In this document: positions 2 through 54,997 of the stretch, one piece after another
How positions within the stretch are numbered: position 1 is the first letter of the stretch
Layout: each line of letters starts with the position of its first letter
Origin: Tricharina praecox
Lineage: Eukaryota
DNA length: 64,000 nucleotides
Reading direction: 5' to 3'
NCBI RefSeq assembly: GCF_024521635.1
Contig: NW_026250406.1
Location: forward strand, 1,054,001 to 1,118,000
The notes under the pieces: generated by a model
The model's database searches: none
Seen by the model: the letters and a program-made list of their open reading frames with translations, nothing else
Told to the model about the DNA's origin: nothing
Translations under genes and position numbers: made by a program

Positions 2-1674
2 CGTCGTCCTTCGCAGATCGTTCGCCGACAGTCACTGCTGCCGCAGTCCGACAGCAAATTCATCACCGAACTCTACTTCGGCCAGCCAACCCTAGCCGAG
101 GAGGTGGATTCGGACGGTGTTCTTCGGACCGGGCAACAATCCCCGGCCATGACTGCTCGCAAGGTTTGGGTCAAGCGGTGCAACGCATCCCCCACTTCCG
201 TGCTGGTTACCGAAGAGGACTTGGTGGACGATGTCCGTGATTTGATCTTGGGAAAGTATCAGAACACGCTGGGACGGCATTGGGATGCTCCCGACGTACA
301 GGTCCGCATCGTGCCGCGGGGAGCGAGGCCGAGGGCTCACGATCGGAGTCACGAGAGAGGACACGGGTCCGAGCGGATACTGTCTCCGGACGAATCGCTC
401 TTGAGGGTGGTCGAGGAGTACTTTCCCGGGGGACAGCACGCAGATGATGCTCTGATCATTGAGGTTCCAGAACGAAAGACACCGCGGCCATCGCCCGGTC
501 CTGTCATGCATAGCTACACCTACGGAGGCGATCATCACGTCGAGCCGGGCTACTTCGACATTCCGCCACGTCCCGTTCTTAACCGTGGAACCCCAGATCC
601 CACCAACGGCGGACGGGTCGCGCCGATACCTAGCCCCCAATATCCACGGGAACCGCATCGTCCCCAGATAGGCCGCCGGATGGCCACCTCGCCTCCAGTT
701 CAAGGCATCATCCTCGCTCCCAAGGTCCCAGCCGGGAGGTCCCGGGGTGGGTCCGATGCGTCTGCGCCAAATGGAGGTCAGCCACCTCCTGCCCCACCTC
801 TCAAGACTGTCCCGTCTGAAGAAGATCGGTCCCAGAATACCGCCATGTCCACACCCGCCCGGGTCGCGTCGCCACTGCCAATAGGATCCAGGAAGATCAA
901 GGACGTGAAGCAGGCGAACCCAACCCCACCACCGGCGTCAGGGCCGGGGCGACGTTCCGACGGCACGGTACCTCCGATTAAAGTGCTGATCGTCGAAGAC
1001 AACGTCATCAATCTGCGGTTGCTCGAGGCGTTTATGAAACGACTCAAGGTTCGGTGGGAGGCGGCGATGAACGGAAAGATCGCGGTGGATAAGTGGAGAG
1101 CCGGGGGATTCCATTTGGTATTGATGGATATCCAGTTGCCAGTGATGAATGGTCTGGACGCGACCAAGGAGATCCGAAGGTTGGAGAAGGTGAATAGGAT
1201 AAGAGCAGCATTCCCACACACGAAACCGGATGATGAAGACGACGAACCGGTACCGGAGGAGATACCAGAGGCGGACCGCCTGCCCGATTCGATTCTTTTC
1301 AGGTCTCCAGTCATCATTGTTGCCTTGACTGCTTCTTCCTTGCAGAGTGATCGTCACGAAGCGTATGCAGCCGGGTGCAATGACTTCCTAACCAAGGTTC
1401 GTTTCTCTTTCTTGGACCATCTACCTGAACGTGGGTTTGCTGACGTGTTATACAGCCTGTGAATTTCATCTGGTTAGAACGGAAGGTCACCGAGTGGGGC
1501 TGCATGCAAGCCTTGATCGATTTCGATGGATGGAAGACGTGGAAGAAGAGTGCAGAGGAGATGTCTGCGGCCGACGCAACGGTGGCCAAGAACAAACGAC
1601 TAGCTGCAGGTAACAAGACCAAGAAGCTCAAGAATAATGTCGACGATTCTAAGCCCACCACGCCAGCCGGATAA
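2..1674 (+). CDS. SSK1: Two-component response regulator of the HOG pathway (Ssk1/SskA/Mcs4 type), 5'-truncated by the window; exons <2-1396 and 1456-1674
   Basis: The frame is open from position 2 (RRPSQIVRRQSLL...RKVWVKR). The receiver domain is VPPIKVLIVEDNVINLRLLEAFMKRLKVRW...FHLVLMDIQLP...VIIVALTASSLQSDRHEAYAAGCNDFLTK|PVNFIWLERKVTEWGCMQALIDFDGW. A 59-nt intron at 1397-1455 (GTTCGT...GCTGAC...TACAG) restores the conserved TKPV. Confidence 0.93.
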
Positions 1675-3978
1675 GTAACGGCCGTGGGAATTTTGGCACA
1701 CATGTTTTTTTCCAAGATCCGCCCGGACGGACCATCACCTTATTACCCCCTAGATCTTGCGCTGCTTTGGCGACGACGGCGATGGATACATGCGTTTTAT
1801 ATTCATACACTATGACACCGGATGTTCTTTTGCTCGAGTCCACCGCCGGTTGACATCTAGGAACAAGCTGTTTCAGTTACATTCTTACAAACCATACAAC
1901 CCAACCATACGGCTGCAGTTTATCGCATTGATAACCCGTTGTTTTTTTTTGTTCTTTTTTTTCTCTTTCTTTCCCTTTGCTTTCTCTTTTACATTTTCTT
2001 GTGTCGTCATGGTGGTAATATCATTCATCATATCATTTTAGCGTTTGGTTTTGCGCCACATTTGTCGCAAGGAAAGGACTTCATTGGTTTTGGGGGTGGA
2101 AGGGAACATACAACATACATACATAAGCATGGATTGGGATTGGATTGAATTGGATTGGATTGGATTGAATTGAATCCGATGAGATTGGGGAACGGGGACG
2201 GGGACGGGGAAATAAGAGGGGGAGGGTGGGGGGAGGGTGGTTTTGACTTTCTTTTTTCTTTTTCTCTCTTTCGTTTCTTGTCTTTTTTCTTTTCTTTTCT
2301 TTTCTTTTTCCTTATGTCTGTGTTCCTTTCTTTCTACTTCTACTTCTACGGGTACTTCACGTCATTTTTTGCCGCTGCTACCTTGCTGCTGCTGCTGCTG
2401 CTGCTGCCGTGTACTACCTACCTATGTATATTGATTGCCTTTGCGTTTGGATATTTCGGGGGTTGGGGGTTAGGGGGATGAAGATGGGAGGAGGGGATGG
2501 GCGGAGGTTCTTTTCGGCGTTTTTTTTCATTTTCTTCAAACTTTCAAACTTTCAACTTTTTACACACTGAATGAAGCCTGAAGCCTGAAGCCTGAAGGAG
2601 GTGGGGACGAGACGGGGGTCGGGACGCGGAGGGCGGAGGGCGGGGGCCGGGGGTCGGGACGGGGATTGTATACGTATAGGTTTATATACACTTACATTGC
2701 TTAATTGATTGATTGATTGATTGTTCATACAGCATGGAACCCGAAGGTTATGGCGATAGAGATATCTACAATACAACATTTCGACAAAGAAATCCCACCA
2801 CCAAATCCATACAGAAATGACAAGCCAAATCCCTTCGTCTCGCAATATTTTGAAAGTGAGCCTCCGAAGAGGCTCGGGTTGTCGGTTTTGCGCTGTAGCG
2901 GCGCTTCGTAGCCCTCCTCTTCTGCAAAAGATACCTCTACTCGGTACTACCCTCAACATAACCAGTCTGGCGCACACGGCATGGTGCTCGAAAGGAATCG
3001 TCGTCTCGGGGTTTGCGTAGCTGTCAAGGCCGGGGCCCGATGAATCTCTCCTAGAGTGATAAAATCGATGATGATGTGCGGGGAAGCGATGGTGAGACTT
3101 CTTCAGAGGTTCGGACGCCGCACCCGTGGTGGTGCAGTTCTCCGGCCAGGGACCGAGGCTCGATTGATCTCTATCGCTTCATGCTCATCGTCGTCGAATT
3201 CGTCGGTCGGGGCACTCAATCAGCGGTCGGAAAGAGTGGACATACACGCCACATGAATCCTGAAGTCAAAGTGAGCGGGGCATTTGGTGTGCCAACGCAT
3301 AGTCTTGGCATTTTTGGAAGGTTGGTGTGGTTGTCGGAGGTGTGTGTATTTACATTGCTTACATTGTTTGGTTGATTGTTTGGTTGTTTCAAGTTTGGTT
3401 GGTTGGTTGATTGATGGGGCTTGAAATTTGGTGGAGGACGGTGGATGGTGGGAAGCAAATGTACTCACTTCGATTGGTACTCTCTACCTTCTTTTGCTGT
3501 GTATGCTGCCTATAGGCTGTAGGCTGGCTCGGTAAACCGCGCCGCTGTTGACAACTCGACAGTTGATCGGGATCCCGTGGGCTATGGACTTTGTTGGGGC
3601 TAGCTGTCTGGCTGTCTGGCTGCCCAGGGGGGGTTTAAGGCTTTAAGGCTTTGAACGGATATGACTTCGTGGGCTTTGACATGGGCTGCTTTCCTTGTAC
3701 GTACGTAAGTAGGTACCGAGGTACCCAAGTAAGCGCGGAAATACTACGGCTTGAGAATTGACTGTTGACTCTAGACTCTTGAAAGTTGAGGCCTCACCTC
3801 CGCTATGTATGGTAGGTATTCTCCTTCGAGCTCTTGGAAGTTGGACTGGACATATCCGTATACAGGTAGGTACGAAATAGGTACGGAATACAGGTTGAAT
3901 TTTCAGCGAGGGTAAAGGGTCGAGGATCGAGCTTTCGGCGAAGGTTGAGGGGCGAGGGATGAGGGTCGAGGGTCGAGG

Positions 3979-5278: not shown

Positions 5279-8200
5279 TCAAAGCTCCACGATCGATTCG
5301 CGAGCTCTCTCTCGGGCGATTCCTCCATATCTCGCCGGATCTGCATTACCGCCGGCGTTATCCTGCAGCAGTAGGAGCTCGACAATCGGCGCGTGACCTC
5401 CCTCGCACGCGGCTTGCAGAGCGGTTCTTCCACACATCGCTGGCTCAGCACCGACATCGGCGCCATTCCGCAGGAGGAACTCGACGACCGATTTGTGGCC
5501 TCCTTCGCACGCGGCCTGGAGAGCGGTTCTTCCATAGCCCCATGCTGGGGGGGGGGGCATTGACATCGGCGTTGTTCCGCGGTAGTAGCTTGGCGATTAG
5601 TCCGTGGCCTCCCTCGCATGTAGCTTGAAGCGCTGTTCGCCCATTAGACGCCGCGGGAGCTGCGTTGACTTCGGCTTTGTGCCGGAGTAGAAGGGAGACA
5701 ATCAACATATGACCACCCTCGCATGCCGCTTGTAGCGCGGTCCTTCCGTCAGTCGCCGCTGGAGGGGCATTGACTTCGGCATTGTTCCGTAGCAGGAGCT
5801 CGACAATCGGCCTGTGACCCCCTTCGCATGCGGCCTGGAGGGCTGTTCTTCCACCCGACGCCGCTGGATCGGCATTGACTTCGGCGTTATTTCGTAACAG
5901 GAGCTCGACAATCGATCCATGGCCTCCCCCGCATGCGGCTTGAAGGGCGGTCCTTCCGTCGGTCGCCGCTAGGTTAGCATTGACTTTGGCTTTGTTCTGC
6001 AGCAGAAGCTCGACAATCGATTCGTGGCCTCTCTCGCACGCGGCCTGGAGAGCAGTTCTTCCACACATCGCTGGATCAGCATTGACATCTGAGTTATTCT
6101 GTAGAAGAAGCTCGACAATCGATATGTGACCGTTTCCGCATGCGGCCTGGAGGGCAGTTCTTCCATAGCCCCATGCTGGAGGCGCATTGACGTCAGCGTT
6201 ATTCAGTAGTAGAAGCTCGACAATCGACCCGTGACCTCCCTCGCATGCAGCTTGAAGAGCGGTTCTTCCGTCAGTCGCTGCTGGAGGGGCATTGACTTCG
6301 GCGTTATTCCGTAAAAGAAGCTCGACAATCGATTTGTGACCTCTCTTACATGCGATCTGGAGGGCGGTTCTTTCATAGCCTCATTCTGGAGGAGCATTGA
6401 CTTCGGCTTGATTCCGTAGTAGAAGCTCGACGATCGATTCATGGCCTTCCTCACATGCGGCTTGCAGGGCGGTTCTTCCATCAGGCGCCGCTGGATCAGC
6501 ATTGATGTTGGCGTTGTTCCGTAGTAAAAGCTCGACAATCGACCCGTGACCTCCCTCGCATGCAGCCTGGAGAGCGGTCCTTCCACTGTTCCATGGTGTA
6601 GAAGCATCGACATCAGCCTTATTCCATAAAAGAAGCTCGGCAATCGATTGGTGGCCGTTCCCACATGCAGCCTGGAGATCAGTTCTCTCATGGGCTGCCG
6701 GCGCCAGGCGTGTTAGAGGAGCATTAGGTTCAGCACCAGCCTGCAGCAGAAGATCGACAATCGATTCGTGACCACTCCTGCATGTGTCTTGCAAAACCGT
6801 CGATTCGCTGGTTATAAAGTTCGGATTCGTGTCGCGGTCGAGTAATAGTTTGACGGCACGGGTCGAACCTTCTCGGCACGCATGCTCGAGCAATGTCCCT
6901 CCAAGCGGTTTCCAATAGTTGTCAATAGTATTGGCACCACATGTCCGGAGCAGCGCATCCACGGCATGATCCTGTCGGGCTAAGATCGCAATCCAGAGGG
7001 CGTTCTCAATATCTTCGACGCTGCACACTCCCCTTTCCAGCAAAAACTCCACCAACCGTGTATGACCGCCATAAGCTACACCAGTCAAGGCACAAAGAAT
7101 CCTGACAATTTTCCCATCGATCTCGACGGAGATTCCGCTACTCCCATCGGCACTCACGCCGTCTTCCAGAAGCAGGGCCACCACATCGTGAAGACCTCTT
7201 GAACTCGCGTGAAGGAGAGCCCGTTTGGGAAACGTGGTTCTGCCAATGCTGCGGAGATGCTTTATGAGAAGAATTGCAACCGAGGTGTGGAGGTTTGTGA
7301 TTGCCGCGATGAGAGGAGTAAACATGCGACAGTCGCAATCGTCATCGTCGTAGGAATAGCAATCACAATCGTGGTTACTGCTAATTTCCGCAGCTGGATC
7401 GGCGCCTTTGTTCAGGAGAGCGGAGACCATCTCGAATGAGCCATATCTGGCGGCGATTAATAGAGGGGTCCTTCCTATAGAATCCCTCGTTTCCATAGTG
7501 CCTTCTTGCTCAAATAGTTGGTCGACGATGTGTGGCCATGAGATCTGCTGAGTCCTGGCCCCCGCATTGGTAACATTCTTCGCTGCCCGACCGTTGAGAA
7601 CGGCTTTCGCGATGAAAGGGCTTTTGGATTTCAACGCACGGTGCAAAGGCGAGAAACGCGGAAGTAACCCTGCCTCCTCATTGAAGCCGTCGAACTGCTG
7701 ACGAAACCGAGTGTACAAGAGCGACAGACGCACCGCCGTCTTTTCAACTGTGGCCACCGCTCCTTCGTCCTCAAACTGGCCATACCAGTTTCTGTAAGAT
7801 TTCCGCACCACTCTTCGTAGACTTCTATGGCAGCTAATATCTCGCCGTTGTCCTCCAGCATCGTAGCAAGCTTCGTAACTGCCCGTTCGTGATATCTAGA
7901 GATGGTGGATACACCGTTGCATCGTGTCGATTCGACTTGCGTGAGGAAGCTGATCACCTTTCGGGAAAGGCTCTCTGCCTCTGCAAGTCGTTGCTGTGAG
8001 GCAAGGGCGGAAACCACTTCTCCTGAGAGAATGACAGCCTGTTTGCTGTACTCGTAGAAGGGCTGGCATGATGTATCGGAGTACCGCTGCGAACCCATTT
8101 TCGAACACTGCTCAAGCAGGGCCAATCTTTGACAGCTATCACTGTAAGATACAATCAGTTCTGGAAATCGATGGAGAAACATACAACATGACTCACCATG

Positions 8201-9664
8201 CTCGAAACACCCATACGGGACATGTGCCCCCTTCTTTGTGGTCCCTAAGTAAGACCTTGCATCCTCGAAAGCCGAAATGCCACTAGGTGACCAAGTGTCA
8301 TCGGTAATTCTTTGTGGCGATGAGGTATTGTCGTAAGGAAGAACCGCTCCGTCTAAGATGGTCAATACTTTCCTCTCCTCGGGGATGTCAGGCAGGTTCG
8401 ACGGTGGGCCTGCCGCAGGGCCCGATGAAGATTTAGCGCGAGGAGAATGGTTGGATTCCTTCAGAGGGCATAGGTTCTCGATTTTCATGTGAATGGGCGA
8501 GGGTCCGGGTGCTTCCGGGGCGTGGGGTAGATGTTCGACTACAGCAGAGTCGGGTTTCGGTGACCCTTGAGATTCTCCGAGGCTGTCATGGGCCTTCTCT
8601 CGTACAGAACTAACTGGATCCTTTGGTCTCCTGATCGCCATCTCTGGCTCAGAACACGGCAAGCCCTTAAAATCGCACCGCTTGCACTTTTCTGGCCATC
8701 GTTGCTCGTCGGGCTCGCACTATAATTCGCCGTTTAGCGTTGGCCGCAATCCCCCAAGCTTTTCGGAGCTTCCATACCTTCTGCTTGCTCTTACGGCACT
8801 GCAGGCATTTGAGACTGGCTAACTTCCTCCTCTTCGTTTCTCCCGGTCCGTCAATCCTGCAGGTGTACCCGAACCCGGTGCATCGTTTGCAGGACGGTGA
8901 ATCCACGGGCCAGTTGCACTGCATCAAGGTTAGAGACACGTTCCACGGAATACAAATACAAGTAGGGTTTTCACCCGTCGGCGGTCTGTTTTGCAGTGCC
9001 AGCACCTCCTTTCAGGCTGCTCCTCTGTACTCCTCCCCCTCTTCCGGCTCACGGCCGAGAGTGCCAGCAGCGCCGATTATAGCTCCGGGGGATTTGATAT
9101 GACATAGCCAAGGTGAGACGGCTGCTGGGATTCGACTTGCGATGGAACTCCCGAAAGTTGCATTCCCTGAGTACATTGTGATCTTTCCAGGACTACAAGA
9201 TGTGATGTGGCCCCTCCTCCTCCTCCCTCTCCTTCTCCTCCTCCTCCTCCCTCTCCTTCTCCTCCTCCTGGCAAAGTCAGTGACGTTCCAGCAAGGCATC
9301 CTCAGACCTGCCGCGAACGATAGACATTAACCGATGCTGGGATAGACAAACCCGAATTCTAAGAAGGAGCATCCAAATCATGTGATTGGGTTTGTATTGG
9401 AGGTTGCACATACTGGACGAGTTGTGGCCCTCCCGAGACCTCAGAATATGACGATGATGTGCCCTCTGCAACTGGTGAAATCAGTGATGTTCCAACAAGA
9501 CGTTTTCAGGTCTTCCAAGATAGCCGCAAACTGATGGTGGAGAGACAACCTGAATTCCGAGAGGAAGGGTGCGAGATATGCGATGGCCACTGGGCTGGAA
9601 TTTTGGGCCAGAGCTCCCCGAACTGAGGGTAATGGCTAAAAGCCGCACTGGAGCTGAAGTCCAT
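5279..9664 (-). pseudogene. Paralogue A: 2x Zn(II)2Cys6 / TPR-like block / ankyrin-repeat protein, disabled
   Basis: Predicted exons 9664-9550, 9471-9352, 9267-8975, 8918-8778 and 8719-5279. Splicing yields CWHCKTDRRR|CNWPVDSPSCKRCTGFGYTC and CLQCRKSKQK|CEPDEQRWPEKCKRCDFKGLPC. These are followed by a TPR-like helical region, several divergent ankyrins and 13 GRTALQAAC-type repeats. Lesions are in-frame TAG 9359-9361, TAA 9077-9079, a frameshift at about 7812, TGA 6381-6383 and a frameshift in the G11 run 5547-5557. Confidence 0.85.
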
Positions 9665-10960: not shown

Positions 10961-12331
10961 TAATGATAAGTCGCTAGGTGCACCCATAGCGAGTCGGTAG
11001 CTTTTATGCCTCAAGCGCGAACTCCACTCATCTGGTCTGAATTTTCTGTTCACAACGTGCAACTGGAGACAAATTGGCCACTCTACAATCATGAAACGCG
11101 AAAAAATCCTCAGCATAATCTAGGTAGGTAGTAAACGACTGTCACGAGTACTCTAGCGATTATTTTCCAGCATAGATCTCATCTGGTTGGATTGGGACGG
11201 GTGGTCCGGACTCCAAAGTGCGAACGCCATCGGGTAATTACCTAGCCATAGTGGCGTACCGCCGCTGGTGCTTCAACACACCTGTGGTCAATGGTCATAG
11301 GTGACTGGTATCCCCACAGCACGGAACGCGCTGCTTACCCATCTTCTGAAGTCCTTTACTCTACTCGACGAACTGTCCGAAGGTGGGGGGGGGGGTTGCG
11401 ATCCTGAACCCAATCCAGGCAAACCCACAAGCAAAATTGCGGAGTCTACAACGTACAGCACCTGATCTGAATATGTCAAGGTGCGGATAGTAGGTATATA
11501 GTACTACACGATTCGACGGCTGGCTGTGGCAACCGGGACGGTAGCCCAGTGTAGGCGTCTTCGGTGAGCTTGAAGATACAATTGGGAGGTGCCCGGTGAG
11601 TGTTGCAGAATCAACCTACGCACACGGCTTGGAGATTCGTAGCTTGACTATGTATCTTATGCAGTTCGTGCCTTCGTTGTTTCTCGGACAGACTTCGTCC
11701 TTTATGCACCACTCTCCTACTTTTCGTTGCCATTTCCTTCGCTGATGGGGAAAAGCATGATGAGGATGTTGTTTAGAGAGGGGGAGGATATGGATACGGT
11801 GGTTTGTTCGGTGAGTCTGTAGTAGGGAGTCAAGAGAGGGAAAATATAGTGGGCGGGTGTAGATGTGAGTGACCGGGTTTGCCTCCGTCCGATCGGCTGC
11901 TACGAGACTGTCCCTAATCATTCATTATTCCTGCACTGGCGAAGGATAGTAGGTAGGGCATAGGAACTTTGATCGCGAGAATCGGTGGGAACTCTCGACA
12001 GATGTATGGGATGTAGAAGTAACGATAGTTCTTCAAAAGACAAATACAAATCATGGCAAGATTTTAGATCGCTCTCAGTAGCTCCAATACACTACATTCA
12101 GATCCCTCAACCCACCCGCGCGTATACCGGGCCCATGTGCTGAATGCTAACACTAACCAGCCTGCGATATAGATATAATCAAGTATTCTAATGATCGTGT
12201 CAGTACACTTTATGAGTTCACTCAGAATCTGGGACACAAACATCATTATTCGGTTGCTCCTGCGTCTCTTAAAACCTCCATGATCCCGTATACTCGCCAC
12301 GTAACGCTGCAGTCAGCGCTGTTACACCTCC

Positions 12332-15300
12332 CTACTTCGTTGGGGGTGCATTGACTTCGGCGTTATTCCGCAGCAGAAGCTCGACAATCGATTCGCGACC
12401 TCTCCCGCATGCGACCTGGAGGGCGGTTCTTCCACCATGCACCGCTGGAGGAGCATTGACTTCGGCGTTATTCCGCAGCAGAAGCTCGACAATCGATTCG
12501 TGACCTTCCTCGCATGCGGCCTGGAGGGCGGTTCTTCCACCATCCACCGCTGGAAGAGCATTGACTTCGGCATTATTCCGCAGCAGAAGCTCGACAATCG
12601 ATTCGTGGCCTCTCCCGCATGCGACCTGGAGGGCTGTTCTTCCATTATTCACCGCTGGAAGAGCATTGACTTCGGCGTTATTCCGCAGCAGAAGCTCGAC
12701 AATCGATTCGTGGCCTCTCCCGCATGCGACCTGGAGGGCTGTTCTTCCATTATTCACCGCTGGAAGAGCATTGACTTCGGCGTTATTCCGCAGCAGAAGC
12801 TCGACAATCGATTCGCGACCTCTCCCGCATGCGACCTGGAGGGCGGTTCTTCCACCATGCACCGCTGGAGGAGCATTGACTTCGGCGTTATTCCGCAGCA
12901 GAAGCTCGACAATCGATTCGTGACCTCCCTCGCATGCGACCTGGAGGGCGGTTCTTCCACAAATCTCCGCTGGATCAGCATTGACTTCGGCGTTATTCCG
13001 CAGCAGAAGCTCGACAATCGATTCGCGACCTCCCTTGCATGCGGCCTGGAGGGCTGTTCTTCCACAAATCTCCGCTGGATCAGCATTGACTTCGGCGTTA
13101 TTCCGCAGCAGAAGCTCGACAATCGATTCGTGACCTTCCTCGCATGCGGCCTGGAGGGCGGTTCTTCCACCATCCACCGCTGGAAGAGCATTGACTTCGG
13201 CATTATTCCGCAGCAGAAGCTCGACAATCGATTCGCGACCTCTCCCGCATGCGACCTGGAGGGCGGTTCTTCCACAAATCTCCGCTGGATCAGCATTGAC
13301 TTCGGCGTTATTCCGCAGCAGAAGCTCGACAATCGATTCGCGACCTCCCTTGCATGCGGCCTGGAGGGCTGTTCTTCCACAAATCTCCGCTGGATCAGCA
13401 TTGACTTCGGCGTTATTCCGCAGCAGAAGCTCGACAATCGATTCGTGGCCTCTCCCGCATGCGACCTGGAGGGCGGTTCTTCCATTATTCACCGCTGGAA
13501 GAGCATTGACTTCGGCGTTATTCCGCAGCAGAAGCTCGACAATCGAATCGTGACCTTCCTCGCATGCGGCCTGGAGGGCTGTTCTTCCATTATTCACCGC
13601 TGGAAGAGCATTGACTTCGGCGTTATTCCGCAGCAGAAGCTCGACAATCGATTCGTGACCTTCCTCGCATGCGACCTGGAGGGCTGTTCTTCCATTATTC
13701 ACCGCTGGAAGAGCATTGACTTCGGCGTTATTCCGCAGCAGAAGCTCGACAATCGATTCGCGACCTCTCCCGCATGCGACCTGGAGGGCGGTTCTTCCAC
13801 CATGCACCGCTGGAGGAGCATTGACTTCGGCGTTATTCCGCAGCAGAAGCTCGACAATCGATTTGTGACCTTCCTCGCATGCGACCTGGAGGGCTGTTCT
13901 TCCACCATGCACCGCTGGAGGAGCATTGACTTCGGCGTTATTCCGTAGTAGAAGCTCGACAATCGATTCGCGACCTCCCTTGCATGCGGCCTGGAGGGCT
14001 GTTCTTCCACAAATCTCCGCTGGATCAGCATTGACTTCGGCGTTATTCCGCAGCAGAAGCTCGACAATCGATTCGTGACCTTCCTCGCATGCGGCCTGGA
14101 GGGCGGTTCTTCCACCATCCACCGCTGGAAGAGCATTGACTTCGGCATTATTCCGCAGCAGAAGCTCGACAATCGATTCGCGACCTCTCCCGCATGCGAC
14201 CTGGAGGGCGGTTCTTCCACCATGCACCGCTGGAGGAGCATTGACTTCGGCGTTATTCCGCAGCAGAAGCTCGACATTCGATTTGTGACCTTCCTCGCAT
14301 GCGACCTGGAGGGCTGTTCTTCCACCATGCACCGCTGGAGGAGCATTGACTTCGGCGTTATTCCGTAGTAGAAGCTCGACAATCGATTCGCGACCTCCCT
14401 TGCATGCGGCCTGGAGGGCTGTTCTTCCACAAAACTCCGCTGGAGGAGCATTGACTTCAGCGTTATTCCGTAGTAGAAGCTCGACAATCGATTCGCGACC
14501 TCTCCCGCATGCGACCTGGAGGGCGGTTCTTCCACCATGCACCGCTGGAGGAGCATTGACTTCGGCGTTATTCCGCAGCAGAAGCTCGACAATCGATTCG
14601 TGGCCTCTCCCGCATGCGACCTGGAGGGCGGTTCTTCCATTATTCACCGCTGGAAGAGCATTGACTTCGGCGTTATTCCGCAGCAGAAGCTCGACAATCG
14701 AATCGTGACCTTCCTCGCATGCGGCCTGGAGGGCTGTTCTTCCATTATTCACCGCTGGAAGAGCATTGACTTCGGCGTTATTCCGCAGCAGAAGCTCGAC
14801 AATCGATTCGTGACCTTCCTCGCATGCGACCTGGAGGGCGGTTCTTCCACAAATCTCCGCTGGATCAGCATTGACTTCGGCGTTATTCCGCAGCAGAAGC
14901 TCGACAATCGATTCGCGACCTCCCTTGCATGCGGCCTGGAGGGCTGTTCTTCCACAAATCTCCGCTGGATCAGCATTGACTTCGGCGTTATTCCGCAGCA
15001 GAAGCTCGACAATCGATTCGTGACCTTCCTCGCATGCGGCCTGGAGGGCGGTTCTTCCACCATCCACCGCTGGAAGAGCATTGACTTCGGCATTATTCCG
15101 CAGCAGAAGCTCGACAATCGATTCGCGACCTCTCCCGCATGCGACCTGGAGGGCGGTTCTTCCACAAATCTCCGCTGGATCAGCATTGACTTCGGCGTTA
15201 TTCCGCAGCAGAAGCTCGACAATCGATTCGCGACCTCCCTTGCATGCGGCCTGGAGGGCGGTTCTTCCACCATCCACCGCTGGAAGAGCATTGACTTCGG

Positions 15301-16738
15301 CGTTATTCCGTAGTAGAAGCTCGACAATCGATTCGTGACCTCCCTCGCATGCGGCCTGGAGGGCGGTTCTTCCATGAATCTCCGCTGGATCAGCATTGAC
15401 TTCGGCGTTATTCCGCAGCAGAAGCTCGACAATCGATTCGCGACCTCTCCCGCATGCGACCTGGAGGGCGGTTCTTCCACCATGCACCGCTGGAGGAGCA
15501 TTGACTTCGGCGTTATTCCGCAGCAGAAGCTCGACAATCGATTCGTGACCTTCCTCGCATGCGACCTGGAGGGCGGTTCTTCCACAAATCTCCGCTGGAT
15601 CAGCATTGACTTCGGCGTTATTCCGCAGCAGAAGCTCGACAATCGATTCGTGGCCTCTCCCGCATGCGACCTGGAGGGCTGTTCTTCCATTATTCACCGC
15701 TGGAAGAGCATTGACTTCGGCGTTATTCCGCAGCAGAAGCTCGACAATCGATTTGTGACCTCCCTCGCATGTGGCCTGGAGGGCTATTCTTCCACAAAAC
15801 TCCGCTGGAGGAGCATTGACTTCAGCGTTATTCCGTAGTAGAAGCTCGACAATCGATTTGTGACCTCCCTTGCATGCGGCCTGGAGGGCTGTTCTTCCAC
15901 CATGCACCGCTGGAGGAGCATTGACTTCGGCGTTATTCCGTAGTAGAAGCTCGACAATCGATTTGTGACCTCCCTCGCATGTGGCCTGGAGGGCTGTTCT
16001 TCCACAAAACTCCGCTGCTGGAGCATTGACTTCAGCGTTATTCCGTAGTAGAAGCTCGACAATCGATTTGTGACCTCCCTTGCATGCGGCCTGGAGGGCT
16101 GTTCTTCCACCATGCACCGTTGGAGGAGCATTGACTTCGGCGTTATTCCGCAGCCGAACCTCGACAATCGATTCGTGACCTTCCTCGCATGCGACCTGGA
16201 GGGCTGTTCTTCCACGAATCTCCGCTGGATCAGCATTGACTTCGGCGTTATTCCGCAGCAGAAGCTCGACAATCGATTCGTGACCTTCCTCGCATGCGAC
16301 CTGGAGGGCGGTTCTTCCATGAATCTCCGCTGGATCAGCATTGACTTCGGCGTTATTCCGCAGCAGAAGCTCGACAATCGATTCGCGACCTCTCCCGCAT
16401 GCGACCTGGAGGGCGGTTCTTCCACCATGCACCGCTGGAGGAGCATTGACTTCGGCGTTATTCCGCAGCAGAAGCTCGACAATCGATTCGTGACCTTCCT
16501 CGCATGCGGCCTGGAGGGCTGTTCTTCCACCATGCACCGCTGGAGGAGCATTGACTTCGGCGTTATTCCGCAGAAGAAGCTCGACAATCGATTCGTGACC
16601 TTCCTCGCATGCGACCTGGAGGGCTGTTCTTCCACCATGCACCACTGGAGGAGCATTGACTTCGGCGTTATTCCGTAGTAGAAGCTCGACAATCGATTTG
16701 TGACCTCCCTTGCATGCGGCCTGGAGGGCGGTTCGTCC
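12332..16738 (-). repeat. Coding tandem array of 42 units of 105 bp (last unit ends at the stop after 102 nt), no indels
   Basis: The motif ATTGACTTC recurs every 105 nt from 12350 to 16655. Unit n starts at 16738-105(n-1). Confidence 0.97.
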
Positions 16739-17888
16739 TCCACACTTTGCTGGAAACGAATTGACATTGGAACCAGCAGTCAGTAGATGTTCGACTCTTG
16801 ATTTGTCACCTGCCTCACATGCGGCGTAGAGGGTAGTCCGCCCTATCTCTTCGCTGATACCAGTCGGATGCGGGGGGGAGTTCGCCTTGGCACCGTGCGA
16901 AGATTCCGCATCAGGCAAATGATCGAATTGGTCTGGGCGGTATGGGCTCTCGGCTCTTATAGACGCAGATGAGAATCTCAGGACGTCGGGAGGGGAGGGA
17001 TGACGCTCAATGATGGCGGATGAAGGCGTGAGTGATTTCTGTGATTCGCGAAGACTGTTGTTGCCCTTCTTCGGGTCCGGCCCGATTGGCACGTTCGATT
17101 TTCCGGTCGCCGCCTTCAATCTTCCGGTCGCCAAGGTTGGTGGAGAGCATGGCAAGCCGCGAGCGATGCACAACTTGCACCTTTCTGGCCACTGCCTCTC
17201 GTCAGGTTTGCACTATCACTCACCGTTTTTATGTTAGCGGCAATCCTTTCGAGATCGTTTCAGGCTTCCGTACTTTTTGCTTGCTCTCACGGCATTGCCA
17301 GCATTTGAGACTAGCCAACTTCCTTCTCTTTGGATCTTCGAGTCCATCTATCAGACAGGTATACCCGAACTTCTTGCATCTTTCGCAGGACTGTGAACCC
17401 ATAGGCCAGTTGCACTGCATCAAGATCAGAAAAAATGTTGCCGAGATAAATGGAGAACAATCACCTGTCGATGGTCTTTGGTGCAGTGCGAGCACCTCCT
17501 TAGAAGCTGCTCCCGCGTCCTCCTCCCCCTCTTCCGGTTCATGGCCGAGGACGTTTGCGGCGGTAGTTGCGCTGCGGGGCCTGAAATGGTTTGGACAAGA
17601 TGAGGCGAACATTGTGATTGCGCTTGCGACGGAGCTTCCGGAATTTGTATTTCCTGGAAACGGTCTGGTGTCTCGGGAACCTCTGGATATGATGTAGCCC
17701 CTTCTGCTAACGTGGTCAGTGATATTCCAGTACCACCCTTTAAGTTTTGATCTAATCGTCGACCAATGCGGAATAAACCAACCTAAACTGTGGGAGTGAT
17801 TGTTTAGATCAGGTAGCCACAAACGTGGGAAGTTAAGGCGAACATCCGAAGAATTCTGGTCAAAGTAGATCCTGGAGTTGGAGTCCAT
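12332..17888 (-). CDS. Paralogue B: protein of about 1789 aa with two tandem Zn(II)2Cys6 clusters and 42 highly conserved 35-aa ankyrin repeats, plus one divergent N-cap repeat
   Basis: Exons are 17888-17783, 17706-17465, 17414-17274 and 17212-12332. Introns of 76, 50 and 61 nt have GT..AG ends and branch-like CTGAC/CTGAT/CTAAC, and all phases are compatible. The spliced product contains CSHCTKDHRQ|CNWPMGSQSCERCKKFGYTC and CWQCRESKQK|CKPDERQWPERCKLCIARGLPC, then the repeat GRTALQxACxxGxxSIVELLLRNNAEVNAxxxxxx. Exon 1 is the least certain part but is mirrored in paralogue A. Confidence 0.88.
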
Positions 17889-19442
17889 TGGTGTAGCGGC
17901 TGCGAGAGGGTGGCAGAATAGTAGGAAGTACAGAGCTCCATCTCCGGAGGGTGGATATGTGAAGATATAGAAAACCTTCGAGGTAGCCTTTGCTTTTGTG
18001 ATACCAAGCTTTCGCCTCCCAATGAGGGATTGCGCAACATGCGGCGGCGAATGGAGCTTGTGGGGTAGAGGGGAACATCCCGCACTTTGCGCATGTTGCG
18101 AATTGCGACGTGCGACGTGCGACGTGCGCAAAGTGCCAATGGCCCCAGCCGCCAGATCTTTTGCAAGGGTGTTTGGACAGGCTGACATTGTGGCGCCTCC
18201 AGTTAGCGGCGTGTGGAGGCAAGGCTGACGAAAGTCCTCAGCACCGCTCTCAACCGCCAACAGCCAACCCCGAGGCTCGTCACTCCTTATTCTGTCTGAC
18301 GGAAAGACATCAGGCTCGAGGTAAGAAGAGGAGCTACGGCCAGTGGTGATGGTAGTTGTTACTATTGGAGAGTCACGCAGTTCTGATTCTTCTTCAGGCG
18401 GAACCCCTGTTCAGCCTGTCTGAATATCCAAACAACGATCTACCGGTAGTGGAGTGCCCCAACGTCGCTTCTCTTTTCCGGCCGCTACATGTTATGAGGT
18501 TATATCGAGATAATCCGTGCGAAGTGATTGGAAACGGAACCATCGCCACGGTAAGGGCTACTACTCTACTCTACATACCTACTCGTGGCGGGCATCTGAT
18601 ATGCAGTAGGTATTCGGACACACCAAAGGAGTGTGGGTGGGCACCAAAACGAGAAATAAAACACGCCATCCGGATACATCATACGTGCCACGAGTAGGTA
18701 GGTATGCAGGTCGGAAATCCCCACATGCGCGCACCATCTTATTCGCCCACATTGTCGGAAAGAACCGCCAGATACAAAGTACAAGGTACTTACCCAGCTG
18801 GCTTACTAAGTTCACGACCACGGTGGCCCAAGCAGCCGGAAGACGGTATTTTCCAACTGGCCTGTGTGCGACGCTCGCTACATATGATTACTAGTATGTA
18901 GTAACTATCGCCCACCTTTCCGCCGCGAAGCTTCCCTGGACTGTATCTAGAAGATGAGGTAAGCTTTCTGCAGCGCAAATTCCCTGGCGACCATACAATG
19001 TATGTATATACATACAGTACTTGTACAGTACATAGGCCCTGCGAGATTGGGGGCTGTGCATCGATCCTGCTTGGCGCTTGTCCTAGCGTCATGGGGAAGC
19101 TGGAGCCTCGGAAGGCGTCTATGACTTCTTTCCCCAGTCTCATTAGCAGTCTATTGCACAAAATTAGAGTAATAGATTGAAGGCTAGCCTCGTTCCAGCG
19201 CGACCGGTTGGCTCTTATGAAGCAATGACGATGATCTATACGTAATATGTATGTAGGCAGGTATGTTGATGTGAGGAAGTTATGAGAGCGGCAGTCAGCC
19301 GTGATGAATGGGCTCATTACTATATAGGAGACGAGGTAGCCGCCATCAACGTGATGATGAAACCCCATGGAACAAGAGTACCATCACAGAGCCCTTGAAG
19401 GAGTGTCCACAAATCAACACTACCACTGCAGTACATTAGGTA

Positions 19443-23251: not shown

Positions 23252-25174
23252 CTATCTAGTGCCTATAGCGCCCGGTCCGGGAGAATATCCATCGCCGATA
23301 GAACGCATGTCCAATGGTGACCGGAGATCCGGCGTGGTTCCCGAGTAAAAGGCCGAGCCGGTGGTTGGGATACCGGGAGGCAAGCGTGACGTGGGCTGCG
23401 AACCACCGAGTATGCCGCCACGGCCGAATATGCTGTTCTGTTCCCTCAGCGGCGTCGAAGAGCCATTCCCGAACAATCCGGGTGGAGGACCGGTGGGGTC
23501 GCTAGAAGTTGGAGTGGACAACGACATCTGACGGGATGGCGCCGGAAGTCCCGGTGGAGCACGCACGGTTGGACTATTGAAGCCATGGGAAGGAACACCG
23601 CTCGCTCCAGAGATGGAGCCGTTCACTTTCGGCGCACCGGGATTGGCTGGGCCGGTTGGGTGTGAACGCACGCCAAGAGGGTTCTTGGAGAAACTGAGCC
23701 GCACACCACCCTTTGTGCTGTTGGACAACGCCCGCCCGTAGAGCTCGGTCAGAGCCTTGGTGGCGTAATGAGTGTCTTCGAATTCGACGAAACACATGGG
23801 ACCCTGGGGTTTCGTGCGGAAACACATCCTCTTGTAACCACGCTGTCGGCAAAACATTGCCTTCAACTCGTCCTCCGATGTCTGCGCCGGAAGATTACCA
23901 ACGTACAGGGTGTTGCACGGAGGGTTCTGGTCGGCGGGATTGGCTGGAGGGTGCGAGATGGGGAAGTTGTTGGCATAGTACTGCTTGTTAACCGCCGAGG
24001 CCGGCCAACCGTTTGGCGAGTTGACAGACATTGGCGAAGTTAATCCCGGCGCAGCAACAGGGGGCGCGGTGAGGGGCGATGTGATCCCTGCCTGCGAATA
24101 TCCATTCACACCGACCGTGGAGAGTGGTGGCAAGCCGCCAAAGCGGCTGGTGGTGGGCTGGGCGGGATTGGTCTGCCGGCGAGGCCTCGCGAAGGATAAG
24201 GGGTCGTAATTCTCTCCGGAGTCGTGATCCAGCGTCATTCCGCGGCTGGGAAGGAGATTGGCCATGTTGTCGAGATAACTGTCGGCCAGGAAGGCGTTCT
24301 CGTAACCGTTAGCGCCACCAAGACCGTTCATGCCACCGTTCATCTGGTCGTTAACACTCAGTCGGTCCAACGCAGCCACCATGGCATCTGACGCAGGGGT
24401 CCCGTTCCCGTTGGTGTTTCCACCGACCCGCCCCATCCCGTTCATGCTCGGGAAAACGTCGTTGCCAAGACCGGAGTCGGTCCTACCGATCACACCGTTG
24501 CCCGTGTGACCGTTACCCATGGGTGATGTTAAGTGACGGGAAGCCACAGTTGTATATTCGCTCAATGGCTTCGTACCGATGGTGCCGGGGGTAGTCAGGC
24601 CATCCGAGCTCGAGGGTGACTGCGATGTGAAGTCGGGTGCAAACATCTCCAGAGAGGCTGCCATCGCAACGATCTCGGATGGAGTGGGCCTGGGGACCAT
24701 CGCGACAGTGATGTTGTGTCCGTTGAACTCTTTGCCGTTCAGCAGTCGCTCGGCCTCCTGTGCGCATTCCGCGTTCTGGAGACGCACATACGCGTCGGTC
24801 GAGTACGGACCCTTTACCGCCGGGTCGCTTCGAATGATCCTGACATCCTCAAATCCAACGCTGAAGATGAACATCGTCTTGACCTCCTTCGCCGTAACAC
24901 TGGCGGCCAGACGATCGATCTTGACACCATTCCATTCCCTCGAAGGCGATCCAAAAAAGTCCATCAGATCGTTTGCTCCAGGCGAAGGCGGGCTGTAGCG
25001 CCGCGGTGTCGCAGAGCTGCTGACCGACAGTGGGGCGGTAGTGTGGTCACCACCGCCGGGCATCATACGTGAAAACGCCAGCGATTCCGGCATCCAATTC
25101 AGACTCTGGAGAATGGAAGATTGTTGATTTGAGGGTGAGGAACCCATGCCGGATGCCCCTGGAGGGGTTTGCAT
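23252..25174 (-). CDS. WHI3: Whi3/Whi4/Scw1-family RNA-binding protein (RRM), 640 aa, apparently intronless
   Basis: Signature [21 protein letters not shown]...[25 protein letters not shown]...[26 protein letters not shown], a second degenerate N-terminal RRM and low-complexity G/N/P/S linkers. Confidence 0.92.
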
Positions 25175-28100
25175 GATTTGTAGTAGCGGTGTAGTGGTGT
25201 TTTAAACGCCTTTATTTATTTTTTCTCCGGTAATTTTTTCTTTTCTTTTCCGGTTTGGTTGAAGAAGCCGATGATCGCGCGGAACCCGGTATTTGTCGCA
25301 AGTAGATCTTTGCGCGAGTAGAAATAACGAGCGTTGATCAAAGCTTGTGTCGCTGAGTACTATCGAGACCCGAAAACCCGAGAGAATTCCACGTTTTTTT
25401 CCGCGGTGCCTTCCGGGTTATTTGCGATTCAAACTAGCAGGCTGTCGCGGGTGGGAGAATAGCGGGGGGAGGGATGGCGTTGTCGTTGTTACTGTTGTTT
25501 TGATGCCGATAACGAAGGCCGTAACCGAGGGGGAAAACTGCAGTCTTGTGAGATAAACCGCACGCACGCACACACACACCCAGACTCCTCCTACGCCCAA
25601 AATGCGGTGGAACAAAGACTTACAGTCACGGAAAGAAAGAGAAGATGGCTAGTACCGAGTAGATGCGCGTGGCAGGACCGGATCCGTAGTCGAAAAAAAC
25701 TTTACTTGAAATTCGTCGCGAAGCGCAGAGACCAGCAGCGGCGGTGTTTTTTTTTAATTTATCGCGGTTGGTGACGCGCGCAAAGATCAGATGGCGAGCG
25801 AAGAGCGACCGAGCGAGTGGGTAGGGTGAGCGATGGATCGCAAAGAGAGCAGAGCAGCAACCGGGAGTGCGCGACAGCGGAGACGGATGCGACAAGGGGA
25901 AAAGATGATCCTCGTGACGAAGAGAAGTCGAGTGGACAAAGGATCCGAAGAGAAAGCGATCGATGCGCGCGGCGATTTCGAAGGCGAACGGGCAGGTAGG
26001 CGTGTGGGAGGGATTTGTTGGGTTTGGGGTTTTGGATGTGGACGGGTTGGTTGGTTGATGCGGTTGCGGTGCGGTTGCGATGCGGCGCAGAGTGGGAACG
26101 GACGATTGATTAATGCCTGTACAAGCAGATGGGTTTCGCTGACGATGATGATGCTGATGCTTCTGGTGCTAGGGGGCCTATTTTTTTTCTTTCTTTCTTT
26201 TCTTTCTTTCTTTTCTTTCTTTCTTCCAATAAAGTTCAACTGCGATTTCGCGACACCGAGCAGAGTCTATCGACGGAGTCCGAGAGCGCGCTCCTAATGG
26301 TGCTGGGCCGTGAGCCGTAGATTTCGGAGGTGTAAATGTGGGGAGAAGTGCGGGCGCCGGAGGGTTTTTGGGGTTGGTGTGTGGAGCAGGAGGAGGTGGT
26401 GCAGGATGTGGAGGAGGAGAGGAGGTGGAGGGAGACAGAGGGGACTGACTATCGAAGAAGGGCGACAAGGAACAAACGAGACGTAGAAGGGAGGAGGAGA
26501 TGGCCGTGGTGGGAGATGGTGGCCTGCGATGGGGGAGGGTGTGTGGTGGGTTGGGGTGGTGGGAGGTGGGTGATGGGTTGGGGGTGGTAGGTGTGGTAGG
26601 TGGTGGGTTGGGGTTGGCGCCTTTGGACGAGCGAGAGAGCGACTGGGGAGCGAGGGGGTGTGCTCGGTGGTATGTATGGGAAGCAGTTAGGATGAAGTGA
26701 CTACTAACTCTATGGTATGCTACCAGATGATCAGGGTGTGTAGAGTGTCCAAAGGGAATGGATATGAGTGAATGGGGTGGTGGAAGGGTGGAAGGTTGGA
26801 AGGGGGCGATGGGGGCGATGGGGTGATGGGGTGAATGGGGGGTGGGTGGTGGGGAGGGGCAGGGCAGGAAGACAGTCAGGCTCGAGGGGCCCGTCCAAAT
26901 GGGATGGACTGGACGATGGCCGAATGGATGAGGCAGGTAGGCAAGGTCGTGAGAAGAGAGTATGTGTGCATATGCGAGTGTGTGTGTTGCGAGGGCGTGT
27001 GTGCACACTCCGGTAGGTATGGTTGAGAAAGGCCAGGCGAGCAAGAGGCGCCGAGTTTCTTTCTTCCCTCATTCTTTCTTCTTTCTCTTGTTGTTGTTGT
27101 TTCTTCTGCAGCCTTCGAGAATCGACAATCGAGACTCGAGTCTTCTTTCTTTCTGCCCTTGTTCCCTCGCTTTCTTTCTCCCTTGTTCCATCCAACTGCC
27201 CCCTCCCCAACGCGATGATGCCCAATCCGCAAATAACCTCTCGTCCGCATCCAAGTTCCGTTCCATCTCTGTCCACAGTCGGAGTAGGCAGTTGTCCAGG
27301 CTCCATCAAGGTATGCATATCCCCCCTTCCATGCAGCTACCAAACGAAACGGAGAGTATGCCATCGGTGGGGGGTGGGGGGATCTAGGTACTCCAGTATG
27401 GCAGTAGAGTAAGCCAAACAGAGTGCTGAGGGCTTCTGTGAGATAGAGTACTATACACTAGCAGTACAGTAGAAGCTTAACCCTTCCTTGCGTCGTCGTC
27501 GTCGGTGAGGAGTCACATAAGCATAGAGCGAGAAGCACTATCGACGTAACCGTTCCCTATGTACATATCGTCACCGTGGTCCGTACGAGTGCGTGTGCGT
27601 GTGCTGACGAGTGAGTGAGTGCGTATAACCCACAAAGAAGTGTTACCCCCCGATGCATCTACTCTAGTGGCTATGCTCAACGGGTTCTGGAGGTTCGATT
27701 GAGACGCAACCCATCATAGGTGGTACACCGTACCATAGAGCAAGCAGCAGAACCCTAGCCCCGTAACAAACCGTCCATGCGCTTTGCGCACGACCACAAC
27801 GCCATCCCTCGTCTCGATCGTCTCCGACACCTCACCTTCGTCGGCAGCACGCTCTCCAATTCTTCGGGATTCGCTCTCTAACGAGTGTCTATGATGCGCC
27901 TTTGACCTTTCCAAGAGGCCGATCTTGACGTCTTGACGTCTTCTTGGTGGGGGCCGATGCACTGTTGCACCGGTGCACCGAGGGGGCCTTTCGGGGGGTG
28001 GAGGCTTGGTGACTGGTCAAGCCAGCAGAGCTGCAGATCCACCATCGCGTATCTGATCACCTTCTGAGGTGGCGCTGTTGACATTCTTCGGTGCACTACG

Positions 28101-28904: not shown

Positions 28905-29030
28905 CTTCTGCTTCTGCTTCTGCTGCTTCTGCTGCTGCTTCTGCTGCTGCTTCTGCTGCTGCTTCTGCTGCTGCTTCTGCTGCTGCTTCTGCTGCTGCTT
29001 CTGCTGCTGCTTCTGCTGCTGCTTCTGCTG
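28905..29030. repeat. (CTGCTGCTGCTT)n minisatellite, about 10 units
   Basis: Read directly; it produces the spurious poly-L/A/C/S ORFs in the track. Confidence 0.95.
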
Positions 29031-34887: not shown

Positions 34888-35589
34888 TCAATAATCTAGC
34901 ACCCCTGTATCGCTCGTGACGGCGCTTGGAGTCTCAGCATCGAACCACATCTCCTCTGCCTCCCTTCTCTCCGTCTCCTGGTCATCCCAATCCTCGCTCT
35001 CATCGATCGTCACGTAATCAACGTCGGGGTCCCTCCCCTCGAGAAACCGTAGTGTCATCGTCTCACGCCACAGCTGCTCGCCCTCCTCCCGGGTGGACAC
35101 CACCTCTCCGGACGCCGTCTCCGCCCTGGCCTCGACAGGCACACTGGTGTCGCTGTCCGCGAGAGCGGCAACCTTCGCCTCAGCGCGAGTGAGATCCGCT
35201 TCGAGAACTCCCGACCAACCCCGCGCACGCCCTTGTGCTTCGCGTTCCGCCGGTGTCATGTATTGTCGGATTAAGCGGTCGTAGAGGAGTGGATCGGCGA
35301 GCTCGAGGTCGGGCGCAGTGAAGTAGGTCGGGGTTGATGAGAGGTAGTGAAGGCGGCGATTGCGGATGAGGGTGAGGCGGGTGCGTTCTGGCGTCATGGG
35401 TGGTGCGCGCTGTGGCGCGGGTGGAGGTGGGGTACGCGCGAGGTCAGGCACGGACGGTGGAGGCGTCGAGGGCGTGGGTGTTTTTGGAGACTCCGCGGCT
35501 GTGGAGAGTGTGGGCGTTGGTGAGGCGTCTGCTGCATCCGATGAGCAATCCGTTGCGTCCGGCGACGAGGATTTTAAGCGACCTGGCAT
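34888..35589 (-). CDS. CCDC97-like (DUF2052) protein, 233 aa
   Basis: Motifs IRNRRLHYL...YF...LELADPLLYDRLIRQY, MTLRFLEGRDPDVDYVTIDESEDWDD, EEMWFDAE and the C-terminal DTGVLDY. Confidence 0.85.
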   Translation of the reverse strand: MPGRLKSSSPDATDCSSDAADASPTPTLSTAAESPKTPTPSTPPPSVPDLARTPPPPAPQRAPPMTPERTRLTLIRNRRLHYLSSTPTYFTAPDLELADPLLYDRLIRQYMTPAEREAQGRARGWSGVLEADLTRAEAKVAALADSDTSVPVEARAETASGEVVSTREEGEQLWRETMTLRFLEGRDPDVDYVTIDESEDWDDQETERREAEEMWFDAETPSAVTSDTGVLDY

Positions 35590-54847: not shown

Positions 54848-54997
54848 CACTTCGACACTTCGACACTTCGACATCCACACTTCGACACTTCGACATCCAC
54901 ACTTCGACACTTCGACATCCACACTTCGACACTTCGACATCCACACTTCGACACTTCGACATCCACACTTCGACACTTCGACATCCACACTTCGACA
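54848..54997. repeat. 22-bp minisatellite (CACTTCGACACTTCGACATCCA) x about 6, built from an 8-bp subunit
   Basis: Read directly from the sequence. Confidence 0.9.

Follow-up and report, generated by a model that had tools for sequence, protein, structure and literature searches.

Zinc clusters of the Zn2Cys6 type follow the spacing C-x2-C-x6-C-x(5-12)-C-x2-C-x(6-8)-C, and the canonical Gal4-like regulators that carry them also have a coiled coil and a middle homology region. Repeat arrays that are highly homogenised and vary at their surface have been proposed as the ligand sensors of fungal nucleotide-binding oligomerisation domain (NOD)-like receptors (NLRs). According to PMC4986451 the ankyrin arrays of NLRs consist of near-identical units, typically of 33-34 amino acids (aa), show signs of concerted evolution, vary at the inner helix and hairpin loop, and reach a maximum of 21 highly conserved repeats. 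The same source places only 60-70% of the highly conserved repeats of dikarya in NLR-like proteins and 30-40% outside them, so that arrays lacking a NOD are not in themselves unprecedented. Here we describe gene A, on the minus strand at positions 12332-17888 of a 64,000-nucleotide (nt) stretch of the Tricharina praecox genome (contig NW_026250406.1, positions 1,054,001 to 1,118,000; hereafter the window), whose product appears, from its sequence, to join two of these known kinds, a zinc-cluster module and an NLR-type ankyrin array. No protein combining a zinc-cluster module with a homogenised, surface-variable array was found in the open-access literature or the protein databases searched, in agreement with the first-pass annotation of this DNA, which knew of no characterised protein with two zinc clusters and ankyrin repeats; supplementary tables may list some.

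Comparison with the nearest described proteins helps to define what is new. Bhr1 of Dichomitus squalens, an activator that has been characterised, holds two PF00172 domains together with an unusual partner domain (PMC13532241), and it resembles gene A in its six-Cys spacing with basic residues and in having two clusters per chain; the double cluster, present in gene A as first described, is therefore less unusual a feature than it was taken to be. The clusters of Bhr1 lie near the C-terminus with septin-like NTPase segments, whereas those of gene A are N-terminal, split alike by introns and have ankyrin repeats after them. PMC10305253 mentions at second hand an Alternaria factor with two clusters, and Zn2Cys6 and ankyrin appear as separate proteins in PMC9210304 and PMC9605165. 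The bANK factors ToxE, Aps2 and Apf2 share with gene A the layout of an N-terminal DNA-binding region, putative in gene A, and C-terminal ankyrin repeats, and in ToxE both parts participate in DNA binding (PMC4109984). However, bANK proteins combine a bZIP-type basic region without a zipper with four ordinary repeats, against zinc clusters and 43 repeats (cap included) in gene A, and in that account their genes lie in secondary-metabolite clusters, none of which was recognised around gene A. Unlike fungal NLRs, gene A has neither NACHT nor NB-ARC and none of the effector domains HET, PNP_UDP or Goodbye, and its N-terminus is a DNA-binding-type module; since NACHT and NB-ARC were tested for and are absent, its product is not an NLR. 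Its array is also longer, with 42 units against the maximum of 21, and its units measure 35 aa against the typical 33-34. It departs from canonical Gal4-like regulators in having neither coiled coil nor middle homology region (Pfam, AlphaFold2). The best explanation as a whole, to which we give a probability of roughly 0.45, is that the intact and expressed gene A encodes a double-cluster DNA reader coupled to a variable, partner-binding solenoid. An array attached to a DNA-binding module would give transcription as a simple read-out of array-ligand recognition, and such a protein would show these arrays used outside the NLR switch architecture. The features of gene A are as follows.

17783-17888, minus strand: exon 1, 106 nt, ending in phase 1, with the ATG at 17888-17886
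17704-17782, minus strand: intron 1, 79 nt, GT..AG, tandem TAG-CAG acceptor of which the distal is used
17465-17703, minus strand: exon 2, S/P/Q-rich, with basic patch RKRGRR and the first half of zinc cluster 1 (C-x2-C-x6)
17415-17464, minus strand: intron 2, 50 nt, interrupting zinc cluster 1 just before its third Cys
17355-17494, minus strand: Zn2Cys6 cluster 1, residues 106-135 (x8), across intron 2; pattern match on the RNA-supported protein
17274-17414, minus strand: exon 3, 47 aa, with the rear half of cluster 1, a 17-aa spacer containing KRRK and the front half of cluster 2
17213-17273, minus strand: intron 3, 61 nt, interrupting zinc cluster 2 at the homologous position
17147-17303, minus strand: Zn2Cys6 cluster 2, residues 153-184 (x10), across intron 3; pattern match on the RNA-supported protein
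16844-17146, minus strand: linker, 101 aa (residues 185-285), P/S-rich, predicted disordered
16760-16843, minus strand: N-terminal cap, a divergent ankyrin repeat whose helices are 121-134 and 137-145 in the exon-4 model
12350-16759, minus strand: 42 ankyrin repeats of 35 aa (105 nt) in tandem, each with 9 hypervariable codons
12332-12349, minus strand: tail of five residues and the stop; a C-terminal cap repeat is absent

That gene A is a genuine gene of this Pezizales fungus, transcribed and correctly spliced, follows from the contigs of two runs, X1 and X2, that are presumed to be RNA (a guessed type, with no RNA record). Contigs from these runs were placed on positions 16600-18600 to examine splicing; run X3 had no contig placed there. 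All three introns have GT..AG ends and branch-site-like CTRAC motifs. The spliced joints are 17212/17274 (X1), 17414/17465 (X1 and X2) and 17703/17783 (X1 and X2, one contig each), all of them CT..AC as read on the plus strand and so GT..AG in gene A, in contigs with 0 mismatches. Cover is restricted to exons, leaving the introns and the upstream spacer uncovered, the pattern expected of mature mRNA. Record 3 of X1 (722 nt, 0 mismatches) is made up of 16700-17212, 17274-17414 and 17465-17532 and so links the two exons that carry the clusters to the linker, to the cap and to array unit 1, of which it includes the first 60 nt, while record 5 joins 17883-17783 to 17703 and ties exon 1 to exon 2. 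The first-pass annotation had beforehand made its proposal depend on a spliced transcript joining the clusters to the array, and in record 3, a spliced contig, they are joined to the start of the array. All three of the introns it predicted are spliced out in the contigs, with one correction: its first junction, 17783/17706, is 3 nt off, the acceptor being at 17703, so the protein has 1788 rather than 1789 aa, one alanine being lost and the frame kept. This acceptor is of the tandem NAGNAG type (TAG-CAG, 17704-17709), with the distal CAG used in both runs; use of the proximal TAG would add one alanine, and the frame is kept either way. Downstream, the minus-strand frame 12332-17212 is open for 1626 codons, and the complete gene runs for 1788 codons without a stop or frameshift, 4.4 kb of recombination-prone repeats included.

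The start at 17888 is the first in-frame ATG within the RNA-covered region, and its context and the exon-1 peptide can be aligned in a tandem paralog, gene B, and in two metagenome contigs, L001 and L002, that are discussed below. We regard this start as tentative, given an out-of-frame ATG at 17941 and an in-frame ATG at 18188, 100 codons upstream; both zinc clusters are retained whichever of the candidates 17888, 17541 and 18188 is used. The ATG at 17941, within the transcribed leader, begins a frame of 46 codons (17804-17941, minus strand) that overlaps the main ATG out of frame. It is present in gene B and L001 and is ATT in L002, and the frame may be a regulatory upstream open reading frame (ORF).

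The six-Cys Zn2Cys6 spacing was matched twice in the RNA-supported protein, both times in the N-terminal part and with 17 aa between the clusters, and a basic patch lies upstream of each, which bears out the two complete clusters behind RKRGRR and KRRK that had been read from the DNA. Only 1 of 20,000 shuffles of the first 300 residues gave any six-Cys match, and the unspliced six frames of the whole window gave one, in a trivial microsatellite (28908-29030). Each cluster is interrupted by an intron just before its third Cys; this layout, with both split alike and exon 3 holding half of each, suggests an origin of the pair through duplication of an exon-intron unit. All 12 Cys are kept in gene A, gene B and L002 over a module of 96 codons, in which the ratio of nonsynonymous to synonymous divergence (dN/dS) is 0.29 between A and B (dS 0.71), 0.28 between A and L002 and 0.30 between B and L002 (dS 0.44). 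The module is thus an old, constrained unit of a small lineage-specific family, with gene A as its most divergent member.

Profile searches recognise the module in part. The queries were half-domains, as the introns split the clusters, and exon 3 scored 13.1 bits (gene A) and 15.1 bits (gene B) with Pfam PF00172, whose gathering cut-off is 21 bits. The match covers profile positions 16-35 of 39, the half that would be expected, and the other half-domains, again as half-domain queries, gave no PF00172 match. A sequence search of the PDB with exon 3 returned four matches, all of them spurious designer pentatricopeptide repeat (PPR) proteins, and no zinc-cluster entry. It should be considered, then, that the Cys clusters may not bind DNA at all and may instead be zinc-stabilised interaction or structural knots on a cytoplasmic ankyrin scaffold, a view to which the partial, sub-threshold profile match, the empty structure search and the lack of a coiled coil or middle homology region all lend something. 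We rate this the least probable of the explanations considered, since the exact six-Cys spacing occurs twice, at the N-terminus, with basic residues between Cys2 and Cys3 and basic patches upstream, and since the weak Pfam matches are to PF00172 itself, on the expected half of the profile and from half-domain queries.

The linker that follows, described earlier as roughly 100 aa, has 101. AlphaFold2 was run from the single sequence on exon-4 residues 1-400 (mean predicted local distance difference test score, pLDDT, 64), and over exon-4 residues 24-118 it gave pLDDT below 50 and no helix after cluster 2, hence no candidate dimerisation coil. With exon-4 residues 1-150 as query, none of 392 word candidates (proteins of 894-2846 aa) was a relative at E<=0.001. 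Seven ankyrin-type Pfam families match exon 4, and nine further families appear there with 0 individually significant stretches; exon 2 matches no Pfam family. NACHT, NB-ARC or any other P-loop NTPase family is missing by Pfam from exons 2, 3 and 4, as are HET and the fungal transcription factor middle homology region (PF04082/PF11951) from exon 4, so that Pfam upholds the absence of these three elements noted from the sequence. The entire part of the product that precedes the array comprises 285 residues.

The array was resolved in the same way by three methods. Tandem Repeats Finder reported 12341-16742 with period 105, 41.9 copies, 91% matches and 0% indels; motif slicing gave 42 units of exactly 35 aa after one divergent cap repeat; and Pfam Ank (PF00023 and its clan) matched at E=0 and 974.6 bits in 42 stretches, so the cap and 42 near-identical repeats of the first description stand. 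The 42 units amount to 28 distinct nucleotide sequences and 23 distinct peptides, with a mean pairwise nucleotide identity of 0.911. Exact internal duplicates of 442, 288, 271 and 271 nt occur at offsets of 18, 11, 9 and 9 units, and duplicates of this length indicate recent multi-unit duplication or conversion. Peptide identity averages 83.4% over all 861 unit pairs, 40% of which reach 85%, and when aligned to itself at a shift of 9 units (1155 aa) or 18 units (840 aa) the array shows 86.3% identity. This places it among the arrays of high internal conservation as defined by Dyrka 2014, namely more than 85% identity over at least 100 aa (PMC4986451). The array is thus kept homogeneous by repeat duplication or conversion. 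Homogenisation took place within gene A and much more recently than the split from gene B, because the two arrays have no exact match of at least 40 nt in common and because the proportion of synonymous differences (pS) among gene A units is 0.086 against an A-B dS of 0.71. Units of gene B are 71-83% identical to the gene A consensus. Recent conversion between the paralogs was considered and is ruled out by the same lack of a shared exact match.

Arrays this regular invite the question of whether the count and order of units are an assembly artefact, with the gene itself real and the array shorter or differently arranged. Arrays of high internal conservation are not reconstructable from Illumina assemblies according to the abstract of PMC12222747, and the Logan contig that holds the upstream part of the gene is only 2344 nt long. 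Nevertheless, the 28 distinct units stand in non-periodic order with 0% indels and a perfectly kept frame, and the public contig bearing the neighbouring gene measures 1.72 Mb, which suggests a contiguous assembly. We think an artefact improbable. The antisense strand of the array holds stop-free frames (12305-16678, plus strand, up to 547 aa) that repeat with the 105-nt unit; they are a by-product of the repeats and no evidence of a gene. In a soil metatranscriptome (X4), a 154-nt contig matches the array unit at 16626-16730 with a joint that goes back 105 nt and 0-2 mismatches per piece, which indicates that a near-identical ankyrin unit is transcribed in a soil RNA sample.

The AlphaFold2 model has paired helices in every modelled unit, laid out with helix 1 at unit positions 11-18, helix 2 at 21-33 and the loop at 34-10. 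The best Foldseek matches are designed ankyrin repeat proteins (DARPins) and ankyrin-B/R repeat domains, with probability 1.00 for DARPins and ankyrin-B, and among them are structures of ankyrin-B repeat domains in complex with extended peptides, from Nav1.2 and from an autoinhibition segment, according to the entry titles. An ESM Atlas search with exon-4 residues 1-300 returned generic ankyrin clusters only, all below 0.9. An array that reads nucleic acid in the manner of transcription activator-like effectors (TALEs), with near-identical 35-aa units and a variable residue pair, was also tried as a candidate and rejected, the units being unambiguously ankyrin by Pfam.

Differences among units are concentrated in nine of the 35 codons, at unit positions 2, 5, 6, 7, 14, 17, 18, 20 and 21. 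Over all pairs of the 28 distinct units, the ratio of nonsynonymous to synonymous differences (pN/pS) is 15.5 in these nine codons (pN 0.333, pS 0.021) and 0.12 in the other 26 (pN 0.013, pS 0.102), a descriptive contrast among the recombining repeats of one gene. Extra amino-acid variants stand to extra synonymous codons as 22:2 in the nine and 9:9 in the rest (Fisher p=0.004). Set on the model, the nine sites fall in the loop (2, 5, 6, 7), helix 1 (14, 17, 18), the turn (20) and the first residue of helix 2 (21), and none of the nine lies in the remainder of the outer helix (22-33). Loop, inner helix and the turn between the helices make up the classical ankyrin binding face, and by this model they are the putative one in gene A. 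The variable region also overlaps the positions randomised in DARPin libraries. In NLR ankyrin arrays variation lies in the same region, which is equated with the ankyrin binding interface (PMC4986451). High internal conservation, duplications of up to 442 nt and variation in loop and inner-helix codons together reproduce the NLR-sensor-like signature that the first-pass annotation had reported.

The same variation can be read more modestly. Gene A could be an ordinary lineage-specific zinc-cluster regulator whose ankyrin tail is a constant scaffold, as in the bANK factors or Swi6/Mbp1, and whose 42 units are a recent, largely neutral runaway expansion in which cassette variation descends from a few ancestral unit types and is not selected for recognition. 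Only 8 loop and 11 helix cassette types recur, the long exact duplicates show very recent amplification, gene B holds about 12 diverged units, and regulators with a DNA-binding domain and ankyrin repeats are known (ToxE/Apf2, PMC4109984). However, neutral expansion leaves unexplained why loop and inner-helix codons alone hold the replacement differences while the framework stays at 0.12, and why synonymous difference is higher in the framework than in the variable codons; the focused pattern is the hallmark of NLR sensor arrays (PMC4986451). On balance we find a neutral expansion rather doubtful, although it deserves to be kept in mind.

Gene B, 3 kb downstream and on the same strand, provides the closest comparison.

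5279-9664, minus strand: gene B, a paralog in tandem that shares the double-cluster module and intron positions of gene A; its middle region is longer and its 105-nt array has diverged

Exon 3 is 72% identical between the two genes, which have the three cluster-coding pieces in common, and the position of intron 2 is common to gene A, gene B, L001 and L002. In gene B the module is followed by a middle region of about 600 aa without a Pfam match, then by degenerate ankyrin repeats and then by an array (5376-6677, 105-nt, about 12 units, 72% matches). Gene B is transcribed and spliced at the homologous intron 2 (record 4 of X1 and its loose ends). An in-frame TAA (9079-9077) lies 13 codons before the basic patch and is retained in the spliced RNA contig, and the ATG that precedes the basic patch in gene A is GTG in gene B. 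Further lesions are a frame change in 7631-7895, an in-frame TGA in the array (6383-6381) and a frame change near 5590, so that gene B is decaying. In its public models, P0001 and P0002, the initial methionine lies beyond the clusters; P0002, the longer of the two, carries the label 'ankyrin repeat-containing domain protein [Tricharina praecox]', spans the lesions by introns and agrees with the window at every one of the 148 residues compared. The 362-aa exon-4 frame of gene B had 3 matches at E<=0.001 among 1.84 billion representatives, namely P0001 and P0002, which are gene B itself, and one spurious repeat protein.

A metagenome scan added L001 and L002, which carry the module with the same exon structure and are 70-72% identical over exon 3. 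In L002 the module is followed by a linker of the gene B type and then by a P/Q/N-rich low-complexity stretch (1585-2517, plus strand) typical of activation regions. With its middle region missing and its array hugely expanded, gene A looks like a derived form.

A derived form next to a decaying paralog might also be a young chimera or a functionless gene, a transcription factor N-terminus recombined beside an NLR-type array and heading to the state of gene B. Transcription in itself says little here, gene B being transcribed despite the in-frame stop before its clusters, which is still present in the RNA contig; gene A furthermore is without the middle region of gene B and without a C-terminal cap, and the protein databases searched hold no ortholog. 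This is nevertheless improbable to our mind, as there are 0 stops or frameshifts in the 1788 codons, the module is held at dN/dS 0.29 at a dS of 0.71 from gene B, the framework codons of the array are under constraint, and all three introns are accurately spliced across two runs.

A query of 12 array units found 4369 proteins at E<=1e-20, and domains were counted on the best 120 of these: PF00172 occurs in 0 of the 120 and NACHT (PF05729) in 28 (hand count). Others of the same best 120 carry HET, PNP_UDP or further families associated with STAND proteins (signal transduction ATPases with numerous domains). The best identity to the array is 67%, in gene B, and 59% outside it, again among the best 120 of 4369. 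The gene A product is absent from a collection of 5.8 billion proteins within the length range searched, and the exon-3 profile, run against longer proteins, had one match among five candidates, an unspliced genomic ORF from the same locus on the 2344-nt Logan contig. There is thus an annotation gap, the product of gene A being missing from the collection and its paralog annotated without zinc clusters, and neither gene would be picked up by a survey of transcription factors in fungi or of receptors with repeat arrays.

How might a double-cluster reader with a variable solenoid work? The two clusters would allow one chain to read a pair of CGG-type half-sites and so stand in for the usual coiled-coil dimer; the lack of a predicted helix after cluster 2 and the clusters being 17 aa apart fit such a monomeric reader. 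The long solenoid would bind one or more partners along its concave groove, and unequal crossing-over together with selection would re-tune its surface. More speculatively, partner binding might control the DNA-binding end, and the groove might sequester the protein's own basic or disordered linker until a ligand competes for it, as with the autoinhibition segment of ankyrin-B or with NF-kB p105, whose DNA-binding domain is restrained by C-terminal ankyrin repeats of the same polypeptide. The 24-repeat domain of ankyrin-B/R is likewise a long solenoid; disordered peptides bind along its groove in extended form, one of them a segment of its own chain (PDB 4rlv, 5y4d and 5y4e, by their entry titles). 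Both are 'works like' comparisons only, with no sequence relationship beyond the ankyrin fold, and gene A is without a Rel homology domain; autoinhibition in its product is speculation by analogy.

In favour of a functional reader-solenoid protein, gene A keeps an intact 5.4-kb open frame where gene B is broken. Several points count against it. The half-domain scores lie below the PF00172 cut-off, and no activation domain, coiled coil or fungal transcription factor middle region is recognisable (Pfam, AlphaFold2). The variation is a shuffle of the 8 loop and 11 helix cassette types without open-ended diversity, and the pairwise pN/pS that describes it is no formal test of positive selection. 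The sole paralog with the same architecture is decaying, L002, the sole metagenome relative with a visible exon 4, ends before any ankyrin repeat, and the architecture is documented in one genome only. Finally, the repeat number rests on one assembly, and the open frame is what supports 42 continuous units in mRNA and protein, the array being spanned by no contig.

A stronger version of the same idea holds that the protein is a NOD-less receptor and a transcription factor in one chain, in which a fast-reshuffling solenoid recognises a variable non-self or environmental protein ligand and the single-chain double cluster turns this directly into gene activation. We consider it unlikely. If true, it would amount to an immune-like or allorecognition pathway in fungi with no need for NLR oligomerisation and cell death.

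To survey the surroundings of the two genes, a further 35 open frames of the window were searched with Pfam. They yielded no recognisable secondary-metabolite cluster or NLR gene; apart from the ankyrin repeats of gene B, the domains identified are the following.

2-1462, plus strand: frame with a response-regulator receiver domain
23252-25201, minus strand: frame with an RRM domain
34888-35598, minus strand: frame with a CCD97-like domain
50582-52246, minus strand: frame with a protein-kinase domain

The window also contains two minisatellites, one at 54855-55005 (22-nt unit, 6.9 copies, 98% matches) and one at 28908-29030 (12-nt unit, 10.2 copies, 97% matches), the latter being the source of the spurious six-Cys match in the unspliced frames.

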